Source: Octopus vulgaris
Taxonomy: Eukaryota
Assembly (NCBI GenBank): GCA_951406725.2
Contig: OX597825.1
Span: 18,104,001 to 18,168,000 of the forward strand
Reading direction: 5' to 3'
Length of the DNA stretch: 64,000 bases
A model generated the notes under the pieces. That model saw only the letters and a list, made by a program, of their open reading frames with translations, did not search any database and was not told the origin of the DNA. Below, piece by piece: positions 22,146-57,397 of this stretch; positions within the stretch are counted from its first letter, which is position 1, and the number at the start of each line of letters is the position of its first letter. A program made the translations under genes and the position numbers.

Positions 22146-22765
22146 TTCGGTCATCCCAGAAATAATGCGGTTTTTTCAATTGCATGAATTTAAAGTCGGA
22201 GGCGGAGAAGATAAGCTACCTGCATCAACTTGCTATAAAAGCAGGTAGTAATCTTACCTTGTACTTATTCTTAGTGCAAGTTGTGTGAAGAGTGCAGTTC
22301 GCTTTTAACAGTTATTCTTTCGAAGTTAGAATGAAAGTGACAAAAGAGCATATTCGGCATTATTTTATTCTATGAGTTCGACAAAGACAACAACGCAACG
22401 GATTGTGAGAGGAATATTAAAGCAGTATATGGTGTCAACAGTGGTTCCAAAAATTCTGAGATGGATGCAACAGCTTGGAAGACGATCCACGTCCTAGAAG
22501 ATCTGCAGAACTCGAGGATGTCCTCCTGCAAACCCTGATGGAAGAAAATCCCATCGTAACTGTTGAGGAACTAGCAGAGAGGGTTGGATTTGGTCATTCG
22601 ACACCTACTTGCCATCGAAAATGTAGTAAATTGGTGGAATGATTTCCTTACAAACTTGCCCAGTCTAATCGTGCGCAGTGAATTGCTGTCACGTCTCATG
22701 AATTAACCTTTTTTTGGACCGAATATTGACTGGTGACAAGAAATGGGTTTTCTTTGAAAATGCAA
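22146..22765 (+). mobile_element. mariner transposon, 5' portion; transposase pseudogene
   Basis: TA followed by TIR-like ttcggtcatcccagaaataatgcggtttttt. From ATG 22331: MKVTKEHIRH..LYEFDKDNNATDCERNIKAVYG..CQQWFQKF*..LEDDPRP..LMEENPIVTVEELAERVG..FLDRILTGDKKWVFFEN (HTH region plus first catalytic Asp), with stops and frameshifts; truncated at 3'. Confidence 0.9.
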
Positions 22766-53460: not shown

Positions 53461-53495
<35 letters not shown>

Positions 53496-53498
<3 letters not shown>

Positions 53499-53548
53499 CT
53501 TCCTGATGATTTCTTTTGAATGAAACAGTTCTAGTCCTGTAGAAGCTC
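53496..53548 (+). ncRNA. type-I hammerhead ribozyme motif with intact catalytic core
   Basis: gagcttc-CTGATGA-tttc-tttt-gaat-GAAAC-agttctagtcct-GTA-gaagctc: perfect 7-bp stem I, stem III acag/ctgt, GUA cleavage site after 53541; stem II short and weak. Confidence 0.8.
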
Positions 53549-53632
53549 CTTCTATATAATAAATTAATTTACTCTGCTATGTATTGAGTACCTTATTTAC
53601 TGTGGTTAACCCCGACTCAACCCGGGACCTAC
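53496..53632 (+). mobile_element. about 135-bp hammerhead-bearing element inserted in a (TA)n/(GA)n microsatellite
   Basis: Complex-sequence island bounded by microsatellite on both sides, beginning with the hammerhead. Confidence 0.55.
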
Positions 53633-55549
53633 ATATATATATATATATAAATATACGTATGTATATCTTGCTGGCATTGTACAGCACCACACCTGCAGTG
53701 GAAAATTGATTTTATCCCCGGTATAAATATCTCCATTATTATCTTTCAAACAGTAATAGATTTGGCCGGTCCTAAATTGTGTGTGTGTATACAAAAGGAA
53801 GTAAAATAATTTTTTGAGGTGTTTATCTTTCATAGTTATTACGTATCTATTACCATTCTACTGAGATTTATACCTGAAACCCATCCGCTTTCTGTACAAT
53901 AAAGATGAATATTTAATCATTATCAACAAGTTATTTCAGCTAAGACCGATATATATCACCGTACTACACAGTGTCGCACCACTTAGAAGTATGGAAAGGA
54001 TGGGTACCGTTTGGTGGATACTATTTTGAAAACAATACTTTTTTACTTTCAATATGAATTCAACTGAACTATGTAATAAGAAAGCTTACATAAAGATTTT
54101 GTATATATAACGTTACAACATTTCAAGCATTCATTTATATTTTCAAATATAGTTTTGTTGATCCAACTACTTTCCCTGCACGTATCTGGATTTCGTCTAT
54201 CATATGATGGCATTTAATTTTCTTTTTTCCCTGTTGCGTGTGTCATGGATGAATAAAATAATCTGATATTGAGAATTTGAAATTTTTGCAATCTTTCTGA
54301 ATTATGGAAACTTCTGATCTCTTGTTCCCATGGTAGTATTAGATGTAGCTGGGAGATTGAGAGATTCTTTAATAAGTGCTACGAATATAGTTTTCGTAAG
54401 AAAGCGCAGGAGAGATTTGCAAGACAATTTCTGTCGCATGAAAGAATCGCAAGTACGGAACATTTAGTATTAAAAACTTCACAAGATGGATTCTATCGCA
54501 GGGAAGCATCGCAAGATGTAATATTCAAGTGGAGTCAACCGACAATAGGCGTAAGAACGGGTAGTTAGTTACACCTGGGTACTCAGCTGATTTAATGACG
54601 GTTTCTCGTGATAAGGCCCTAAGGTGGGGTTACGTGAGACCTCTGAGCCCTAAACATATTAACAAGAACAGTGGGTGTGGAACAGGGACGATTGGATGGA
54701 AGATAGTTGCCACAATAGCTAAACAATTAATCTAGTAACTTCACACAATACGTTTTTACAAAGTAGACTGGAGAATCAGCTGTCTAACAAATATGATATT
54801 CAAACCATTCGTAGTAATGTTTCTGAAAAGACAGTGTTTACATAAAATTTCTCGTTTCATATTTCCAATAAATATGGGACATTATAACTAATCAGAAAAC
54901 GAAAGAAGAAATAGCAAAAATATATTCATTGTAACATGGGGAAAAAAAGTCGAAATATAAAATATTTTACCGGCAATTATTGTTACTATTTTCAATTGTG
55001 CAATTATTATCTAACTCACAGAGACGATATAGTAATTTTTCGTAATGTATTTTTAAACTGTATTGTAATCTGAATAAAACATTTGCTCCTCCTTGTTAAG
55101 AATTTGTTTAAAAAATCTAACAGAGCATCTCACGTGATGTCTGTTAATTATATTGCCTCATTCCTATACTCTTACGATAAAATTTACACCACATTGAAAA
55201 GTAAAATACGAATAAACAAAAATTTAATTTACATTAAAACGAAATGCTGAAAATAGATTTCAATTTTCGGTTCCGAGTCTTACATTGTATCTTGGTGTGT
55301 TTTCATCATAATTCTTCTTCATTTCTCTGCTTTTATTTTCATTAGGATAAAGGCACCCAAAGAATTAAGCATTATCTAAGGTATTGATTTTTTTCAGTTA
55401 AATTTGAAACACAGCTAGAAAAGAATAGGAAGATTTCGTATTTTCATTAGATTCATTCATTCAATACACACTTGATTCTGTATTAGTTAATGTGCGTGTG
55501 TATCTTAGGATATACATTCAAACACACGCATGCACTTCCATATATATGT

Positions 55550-55840: not shown

Positions 55841-56344
55841 ATGTGTATTTATATATATATATATACATGAAGGTGTGTATATATGAAGGAAATGGGACGT
55901 GTATAATCACTACTTCTCTCGATGTATATTCTGTTAAACAGAATTAGTTTTCGTACGACTCAATGACTCGAGTTTTACACAATAAAAATTGCAGATTTTT
56001 CTCTGTTTCTTTTCGCAATGTAAGAGATACGAATGCAAAATATTGCCAACTGAGAGAGATCTATCTATTTCTCATATATAAATACATTTTAGGAATACAT
56101 TTTTTGATGGGCTACAATCTTATTTACCTGCATCATTATGCTCACAAATATACATTTGATAAATTAATGGAAGCATTGTATTTGTGAGTAGTTTTGTTTT
56201 CCTAAATAAATAGAGTTACGATCTTTTTGAACGTTATGTATGACTGTTTCCTTTTGAGATTTGATAGCCATTGTTTTTATCTTACTTTAGAGTCAAATTA
56301 CGCGTAATTTCATTTACAACTGTTAGTTCAGTTTCAATTTTGAG

Positions 56345-57397
56345 ATGGAGTACAAACACGGAAATTTTCGACATTTTAAGCTTTTTTGTTTCCGTAAATG
56401 CAAGAAAGCTGCTGAGGCTAACAAAGGGATATGTGAAGTTTATGGTGTTGATTGCTTAACAGAATGGAAATGTCAGAGACGGATTAAAGAAGTCCGATCT
56501 GGAGATTTTTCACTCAAAGATGACCAACGATTTGGTCGACCTACGAAAGTTGATTACGACTGAATCATAGCCATAACTGAATCTGATTGTCATATGTGCG
56601 GGAGATTGAAGTGAGGTTAAATGTATCACACACAACAACTGGAAATCACTTTAAATGTCTTGGACTCGTTAAGAAGCTCGATATTTGGGTTCCACATAAA
56701 TTGAAATAGATTCACTTAACATGAAGAATCAATATTTACGATAAGCAGCTCAAATATAATGAAATCGAACTCTTTTTTTAAACGAATCATTACTGGTGGT
56801 GACAAATGGAATGTCTACAATCACATCTATCGAAAACGATCAAAGTCCAAGCTTTATGAACCAGCACAAATCATATCGAAAGCTATATTGCATAAAATGA
56901 AATGGCCATGCTGTCAATTTGATGGGATTGTAAAGATGTTGTTTATTTTGAGATACTTCCAAGGAATCAAATGATCAATTCAATGTTTACTGTCAACCAC
57001 TAATGGAACTGAAGGAAGCAATTACATGAAAACCGCCAGAATTGACAAATCGTAAAGTAACCGTGTTCCATCATGACAAAGCTACACCAAATACGTCTTT
57101 GCTAATTTGTGAAAAATTATTGGAGCTAGGTTGGGAAGAGGTGTCACATCCAACATATAGCTCTAATGTAATAGTAGCACATTACAATTTATTTCGAAGT
57201 TTGCAAAATTCTTTGAAAGATAAAACATTTAATAATGATGTTAACCTGAAATCCCACTTCCGTTTTTGCCTGATAAGGACCAGAAGTTCTATGAGCGCAG
57301 AATCATGAAGTTGCTTAAAAGATGGCAAAAGGTTATCGAACAAAATGGAAAATATATAATTAATTAATGTTCATTAATTACTTTGTTGCCAACCGAG
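56345..57397 (+). mobile_element. mariner (DD34D-type) transposase pseudogene with right-TIR remnant
   Basis: MEYKHGNFRH..GDFSLKDDQRFGRP; WVPHKL (56686-56703); FFKRIITGGDKW; VFHHDKATP; HPTYSSNV..HYNLFRSLQNSL; KRWQKVIEQNGKYIIN* (stop 57365-57367). Many stops and frameshifts; first and third catalytic Asp altered; aattactttgttgccaaccgag followed by TA at 57398. Confidence 0.93.

Follow-up and report, generated by a model that had tools for sequence, protein, structure and literature searches.

Penelope-like elements (PLEs) carry hammerhead ribozymes whose role has been called unclear in the available text of a description of the Hydra clade (PMC8557442). Metazoan PLE hammerheads cleave poorly, and as dimers, according to the accessible parts of an original report and a review (PMC4209133; PMC6765202). 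In one PLE system that is active in vitro, cleavage is dispensable; the available part of that paper states that the hammerhead of Poseidon of Anolis cleaves only with protein, and that insertion from uncut RNA was demonstrated (PMC11167929). Rotifer PLE repeats have a putative TATA box with an initiator as well as palindromic inverted junctions, in a description whose accessible part makes no link to a ribozyme (PMC3846280). A literature search that covered mainly openly accessible papers yielded no report placing the start site of a PLE at the base of hammerhead stem I.

The hammerhead analyzed here lies in the window, that is, the whole 64,000-nt stretch of Octopus vulgaris DNA under study, where it forms part of a short insert in a microsatellite. 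The features of the locus are the following.

53461..53480, no strand: (AT)n tract, upstream part of the microsatellite target (from the sequence; the family is (AT)n-flanked at nearly every sampled locus)
53481..53496, + strand: (AG)n tract outside the element; G53496 is position -1, either a copied cap G or a base of the tract, and gives a seventh stem I pair
53497..53632, + strand: 136-nt insert of hammerhead and tail, lacking promoter, ORF and inverted partner; its 3' edge is ambiguous to 53636
53497-53548, + strand: type I hammerhead (descriptor search, folding); the 119 cores compared differ mostly at N7 (53507) and in loop II (53514, 53516)
53497-53502/53542-53547, + strand: stem I of the element, 6 bp
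53503-53509, + strand: core CTGATGA, read from the sequence
53510-53521, + strand: stem II region, with U·U at 53510/53521 and stem II proper at 53511-53513/53518-53520
53522-53526, + strand: GAAAC, with the core strand at 53522-53525
53525-53528/53537-53540, + strand: stem III, 4 bp with an 8-nt loop
53539-53541, + strand: GTA, read from the sequence, with the predicted cut after A53541
53538..53556, + strand: competing 8-bp hairpin predicted by folding, which rivals stem I and covers the cleavage site
53553..53568, + strand: AT-rich stretch at which tail-less (inverted) copies end (64 inverted copies; contigs), the putative second RT start
53569..53632, + strand: optional tail, which in full elements is the start of the 5' UTR leading to the ORF (L162-L180)
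53633..53648, no strand: (AT)n tract, downstream part of the target; a target-site duplication is not discernible within the repeat

The insert has CUGANGA, GAAA, an NUH triplet and three helices, and its ends lie in stem I, as expected of a type I hammerhead. An earlier sequence-only reading of this DNA had reported an intact core with a predicted cut after A53541, and every piece was found where it had been placed. Its description of stem III as two changes short of a perfect palindrome was accurate too, and the dimer-type character that it ascribed to this stem is borne out by a predicted duplex of -12.8 kcal/mol versus -1.4 for the monomer hairpin. Two further points need qualification. 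The usual G10.1-C11.1 pair is indeed replaced by U and U, which are fixed in 117/119 and 119/119 cores, but the U·U is a trait of the clade rather than damage, since 14 of 26 published Hydra rows in the available part of the source have a U after the first core strand and a U before GAA (PMC8557442). Similarly, a 7-bp stem I (53496-53502/53542-53548) can pair at this locus, but the seventh pair is not the element's own: where this copy has G53496, long copies read T, or C or A if they belong to older subfamilies, and the stem I of the element is therefore 6 bp. Stem II has only 3 bp and a folding energy of about +0.7 kcal/mol when taken alone.

A descriptor search of the window gave a single hammerhead-sized match, in addition to a minus-strand match with a 46-nt insert in stem II; a looser descriptor gave at least one match in 2 of 60 simulated windows. 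Nothing in the window reached the Rfam gathering threshold, and the 50 weak Rfam matches around the feature (E up to 10) include no hammerhead family. Chance is excluded because the 47-nt core has 1,075 exact copies in the 2.8-Gb genome and its reversed control has none. The earlier interpretation as a whole is only partly supported: it missed that the insert is a retrotransposon fragment with more than 1,000 identical copies. That number also means that the core is conserved through recent copying and not by selection on the window locus.

The last 31 nt of the insert, within the tail, have 1,987 exact copies in the genome (reversed control, 0), and the best 40 full-length matches are 99-100% identical. 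Copies of the family are embedded in (AT)n tracts, in keeping with the (TA)n insertion of the Hydra clade; in many of them an inverted partner without the last 65-75 nt is placed head to head. The family is also present in contigs from runs of three organisms. In contigs of presumed RNA runs, hammerhead and tail are 50-200x deeper than the ORF, a ratio that mirrors copy number, and contigs show no molecule ends. Frequent changes among the 119 cores affect N7 (27) and loop II (52 and 16), and the changes that distinguish subfamilies spare core and stems; compensatory pair changes were found in none of the 119, the copies being too young. Nine inverted copies (L071, L075, L078, L079, L088, L090, L098, L100 and L106) have recurrent deletions or substitutions of 1-2 nt at most 4 nt downstream of the cleavage site, either a subfamily variant or RT error. 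Two identical truncated copies with the same flank, 8 kb apart (L108 and L109; G000:C1, 57.30 Mb), are a local duplication or an assembly duplicate.

Against this background the window locus alone is ordinary, one of thousands of passive inserts. Its copy is solo, without the tandem 150-400 nt units, each with a hammerhead, of a non-LTR retrozyme. An (AG)n junction like that of the window occurs in only 4 copies genome-wide, too few for reiterative (AG)n addition to be common in the family. No insert-free allele of the locus was visible in contigs of public runs. We propose that the window copy is a promoterless passive passenger, for which cleavage would require host transcription through it on the + strand.

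The parent of these inserts became apparent from widely spaced inverted pairs, which flank an RT and GIY-YIG frame, and from a tandem copy, which revealed the 5' UTR and the start of the ORF. The order of the full element is TATA box, hammerhead, tail, 5' UTR, RT/GIY-YIG ORF and a 2.4-kb repeat-rich 3' UTR, followed again by TATA box, hammerhead and tail. One intact element, L236, with a unit of ~4.8 kb, is laid out as follows.

L236, 1046: promoter motif
L236, 1089: hammerhead
L236, 1272-3410: ORF (713 aa)
L236, 3411-5830: 3' UTR (2.4 kb), after which promoter motif, hammerhead and tail come again

L183 and L239, two copies with an ORF, have a 5' repeat to which the window insert is identical at 135 of 136 positions; for the 5' repeat of L236 the figure is 133 of 136. 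Beyond the end of the tail, the parent element goes on with ATAT; its ORF begins 183 nt below the base of stem I. As in EN+ PLEs, a single ORF combines RT and GIY-YIG (YRDD and YIG motifs in L236), and the element has pseudo-LTRs, an inverted 5' copy and an optional tail, which at ~65-75 nt exceeds the 30-40 nt usual for PLEs. The L236 protein carries the motifs RWR (38), DKT (116), CxCX5C (567), CxxC (667) and CxH (695), has one Cys in the GIY-YIG spacer and lacks both CX2-5CxxC and CCHH, which agrees with the Hydra-clade definition in the accessible part of its source (PMC8557442) and led us to drop a Neptune-clade reading of the ORF. The shortness that is a tendency of the clade rather than a strict criterion (generally <3 kb) is not shared by the ~4.8-kb unit. 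HTH_animal, GIY-YIG and RVT_1 families occur in 24-99% of the members of the Atlas clusters nearest to the ORF protein; the ORF had no significant match in Pfam or among PDB sequences, and a single-sequence AlphaFold model (mean pLDDT 34) was not used. Judged by its sequence, the element is a young, very abundant and new family of Hydra-clade Penelope-like retrotransposons.

Several copies of the element deserve mention in their own right. The 3' UTR of L236 is made up mostly of degenerate microsatellite-like (AT/GT/AC) sequence, which differs from copy to copy, and the element may spread microsatellites. Five near-full-length copies (L166, L174, L178, L182 and L187) lose the frame at similar positions around codon 500. 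At L181 (1988-8356; G000:C5, ~37.48 Mb), ~20 tandem repeats of a 333-nt unit make up an array; every unit comprises promoter, hammerhead, tail, 5' UTR and the opening codons of the ORF, and stem III is here nearer by one change to the perfect palindrome. With its tandem units this array conforms to the definition of non-LTR retrozymes, and it is a retrozyme-like array that was formed from the element by one internal deletion.

The ends of the copies were mapped by measuring the distance over which each follows a long copy, in a sample from contig C1 that comprised the first 90 among the 1,987 tail matches. Counted from the 3' end, 14 copies end at 40-76 nt (2 of them have an internal indel and do contain the hammerhead), none at 77-102 nt, 26 at 103-132 nt, 33 at 134-136 nt and 17 beyond. 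On inspection, 2 of the 33 continue into the upstream sequence of an older subfamily, leaving 31. Stem I begins at position 136 (A53497). In 24 of 64 inverted copies, too, the end lies at 134-136; a cluster of their ends at position 87 was discarded as an artefact of small deletions near the cut site. A TATAAA-type motif is present 29 nt upstream in 35 of the 42 copies classed as having parent upstream sequence (28 nt in 1, truncated or mutated in 6), and the 29-nt spacing is kept though the spacer sequence varies between subfamilies.

The junctions add a further trace. Genome-wide, 49 joins to (AT)n run via one extra base, which is G in 37, C in 7, A in 4 and T in 1 (p 2e-13 versus 0.25), and in 35 of the 37 G cases a single G directly follows the (AT)n. 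The search pattern covers one phase of the (AT)n join only, with 9 blunt or TA joins counted apart, and the first 30 loci were left out of the G counts, as the query had biased them towards an upstream G. Five copies jump from within the ORF to the start of stem I, four of them with a G before it. Untemplated 5' G residues of LINE-1 and SVA insertions have been interpreted as cap copying in the available part of the respective paper (PMC4859970). The pile-up of ends, the TATA spacing, the extra G and the jumps from ORF to stem I together suggest A53497 as the transcription start. The RNA of the element thus likely starts at the first base of stem I, and the extra G is likely a copied cap.

A second hammerhead family, unrelated in sequence, older and with a palindromic stem III (17 loci, L219-L235), was searched for without a TATA term, by a pattern that had been designed from TATA-constrained hits. 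In 7 of the 17 loci, TATAAA lies 29 nt above a 5-bp stem I (34 before the core); it lies 37 nt before the core in one locus and is a variant in another. Three loci that stop at the base of the stem have a G at the junction. No ORF was found within 1.5 kb of the loci of this family. A genome-wide test of the TATA spacing was weak, with 318 matches at the expected spacing versus 184 and 268 at two others (reversed controls 85-89). At all three spacings, hammerhead-core patterns are 2-3.6x commoner than reversed controls, an excess pointing to many more hammerhead-bearing repeat families. Further families are seen at L197, L199, L211 and L216, where a TATA motif precedes the core by 36-37 nt, and L211 adjoins a PLE-like RT fragment (E 7e-9). 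In published Hydra consensus sequences, as far as they are given in the available text, a TATA-like motif was seen by eye ~30-33 nt above stem I in only 2 of 6 (PMC8557442).

Together, our data suggest a model in which the hammerhead belongs to a young Hydra-clade PLE and the 136-nt copy is a short cDNA, primed from (AT)n at an internal site of the RNA and run to the capped 5' end, likely the first base of stem I. We regard this model as probable. RNA polymerase II would start at A53497, 29 nt below the TATA box. RT would start either at the end of the tail, which shares ATAT with the target and would be the main site, or ~65-75 nt further upstream, in the AT-rich stretch at 53553-53568; on the 5' repeat it would then reach the cap after 136 or ~65 nt. 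Loose (AT)n ends are seen at 53561-53568 in contigs of public runs. Joining of the cDNA to the target would give the window copy, an integrated strong-stop-like cDNA, annealing to a partner cDNA from the other strand (for example at AGCT) would give head-to-head copies, and a jump to another RNA end would give internally deleted copies. Most templates would be uncut, the ribozyme being mostly off through a hairpin over the cleavage site; a minority of RNAs would be cut, probably with help from the element protein or from dimer formation. A cut in the 5' repeat would cost the RNA its 45-nt capped leader.

This masking of the cleavage site in the parent is a prediction of nearest-neighbour folding at 37 °C, which takes no account of tertiary contacts. 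The pair probability of the masking hairpin is 0.78-0.996 in 13 promoter-bearing copies and, depending on flank length, 0.002-0.67 in the window copy. The full hammerhead fold makes up at most 0.04% of the predicted ensemble in the same 13 copies and ~0 in 37 copies with an inverted partner. It reaches 3-5% in six solo copies with a G at -1 (a seventh, L008, is near 0) and 1.7-5.5% in the window copy, whose stem I has a pair probability of 0.31-0.99, again by flank length. Solo copies with a G before stem I are thus the best predicted folders, and the window copy owes its place among them to G53496 and the (AG)n flank, by which stem I is favoured.

Twelve copies begin at the cleavage site beside (AT)n; 11 of these starts are ambiguous because TA is shared with the target, and a control TA site has 4 starts versus 11 (p 0.06). 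At L249 (G000:C2, 62.516 Mb), two head-to-head copies both stop precisely at the cut, one on either side of a short (AT)n spacer. L258 (C30, 13.753 Mb), which also has head-to-head copies and an (AT)n spacer, and L165 end at the cut as well, ambiguous by one or two bases. The (AT)n spacers of L249 and L258 are possibly untemplated additions. A head-to-tail join of cut end to start, as in rolling-circle products, was found in none of 262 loci. The cut-site copies hint at occasional cleavage in vivo but do not prove it.

A different reading of the pile-up would make the base of stem I a structural hot spot and not an RNA 5' end, with longer cDNAs annealing at AGCT or snapping back on stem I, which would also template the extra G. 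Half of the sampled ends at 136 (13/26) join as perfect palindromes at AGCT, a form that could arise from longer cDNAs too, and 3 more have AG microhomology; the base beside the 3' arm of stem I is C, so that a one-base snap-back gives G, and the genome-wide TATA test is weak. Snap-back should, however, often yield at least two templated bases, where nearly all G cases have a single G. Moreover, other palindromes in the piece have produced no perfect fold-backs in the 90 sampled copies, and the TATA spacing holds despite the variable spacer and recurs in the second family, all of which makes a hot spot improbable. A splice acceptor formed by the YAG before the core, with short copies stemming from spliced RNA, finds some encouragement in the pyrimidine-rich tract and TAG that precede the core in long copies, and a precedent in Penelope of D. 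virilis, where an intron ends at helix I according to the accessible part of the report (PMC4209133). But the AG that splicing would remove is kept in most copies (26/33 end at 136), and the junctions show no common upstream exon. We have rejected this reading, which the retention of AG largely refutes, and hardly any credence is left for it.

The same model of short cDNAs run to the cap has to be weighed against two opposite views of the ribozyme itself. The hammerhead could be catalytically dead or irrelevant in vivo, and serve only as a fold for the element protein. This view, which we consider unlikely, draws on the absence of ends near the cut site among the 90 tail-anchored copies, on the unstable stem II and the predicted masking of the site, on the poor cleavage by metazoan PLE hammerheads (PMC4209133, available part) and on Poseidon of Anolis, whose core mutants, in the accessible text, have no insertion effect in vitro, with no RNA-seq ends at the site (PMC11167929). 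It is at odds with the exact ends of both copies at L249, with those of L258 and L165 within one or two ambiguous bases, and with subfamily changes that spare core and stems. At the other extreme, the RNA of this one locus in particular could cleave itself efficiently and so process a host pre-mRNA of the + strand. The sequence-only reading had suggested such a cut of a host transcript, and the window copy does rank among the best predicted folders. The suggestion is unsupported by our analysis: the copy has no promoter and is identical to hundreds of recent inserts, its full fold amounts to at most ~5% of the predicted ensemble, and no host exon was recognized, as none of the 150 frames tested passed the Pfam cut-off for a host protein (of 204 candidates in the window; short exons would be missed). 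The only two Pfam passes, fragments of a Mos1 transposase HTH (PF17906) at 22341-22535 (+) and 56327-56560 (+), are mariner remnants. A host-processing role is therefore very improbable.

The interest of the locus lies in the family-wide record to which it belongs. This record speaks for TATA-driven transcription from a ribozyme's first base, cap copying, a masking hairpin and rare cleavage. The young family is a natural record of RT start and stop points, it offers genomic traces of in vivo cleavage, and it shows a retrozyme array arising from its parent element. If our reading holds, transcription start is fixed at the first base of the ribozyme, and one mechanism covers solo, head-to-head and internally deleted copies. 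A wider reading is tentative, and we would not yet lean towards it: the PLE hammerhead, here and in related families, might form the first nucleotides of a TATA-driven capped RNA, with the thousands of 136-nt inserts as integrated strong-stop cDNAs that record the cap G and, more rarely, cleavage in vivo. The hammerhead might then be a switch, gated by a hairpin, that decaps the mRNA of the element itself, and gain of the G might turn solo inserts into better ribozymes than their parent.

Retroviral minus-strand strong-stop DNA is a short cDNA whose synthesis runs from an internal, tRNA-primed site to the RNA 5' end, after which a template jump takes place. Here, in contrast, the short cDNA itself would be integrated, and priming would be by target DNA instead of tRNA.

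Among described PLEs, the closest are the EN+ elements of the Hydra clade, including Hydra-1_Obim, which in the available text share RWR, DKT, the CxCX5C linker, CxxC and CxH, the lack of CCHH, a C-terminal GIY-YIG, (TA)n targeting and a canonical hammerhead whose stem II often has U·U at its base (Craig et al. 2021, PMC8557442). The octopus element differs from them in its 4.8-kb unit with a 2.4-kb repeat-rich 3' UTR (published units are generally <3 kb) and in a loop III of 8 nt versus 1-3 nt in 26 published rows, and it is, judged by eye, a different family from Hydra-1_Obim; the start site at stem I that we infer is absent from the accessible part of that description (PMC8557442). With Poseidon of Anolis carolinensis it shares an optional tail delimited by two internal RT starts, AT-rich targets, extension of both target strands, a mainly uncut RNA template and a protein-assisted hammerhead, as far as that system is described in the available text (Frangieh et al. 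2024, PMC11167929). The ORF of Poseidon, in contrast, begins inside stem II and not 183 nt below the base of stem I, and its RT start is not homologous to the target, whereas the main start here shares ATAT (PMC11167929).

Penelope of Drosophila virilis, in the accessible parts of two reports, likewise has a promoter in the upstream repeat, a hammerhead near the RNA 5' end and little variation in a young family (PMC2377424; PMC4209133). Its promoter, however, is TATA-less and internal, with a start 46 nt before an intron (PMC2377424) that precedes helix I, whereas the octopus element has an upstream TATA box that is lost by short copies. Non-LTR retrozymes resemble the insert as short non-coding mobile units with a type I hammerhead that are related to PLE repeats, again according to the available text (PMC7229834; bioRxiv 10.64898/2026.07.22.740005). 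Unlike them, the window copy is a single unit in a microsatellite, and the tandem form of the family is found in the array of 20 units of 333 nt at L181. Finally, full-length LINE-1 and SVA insertions, in the part of the report available, have the same extra G at the 5' junction, read there too as a copied cap (PMC4859970).
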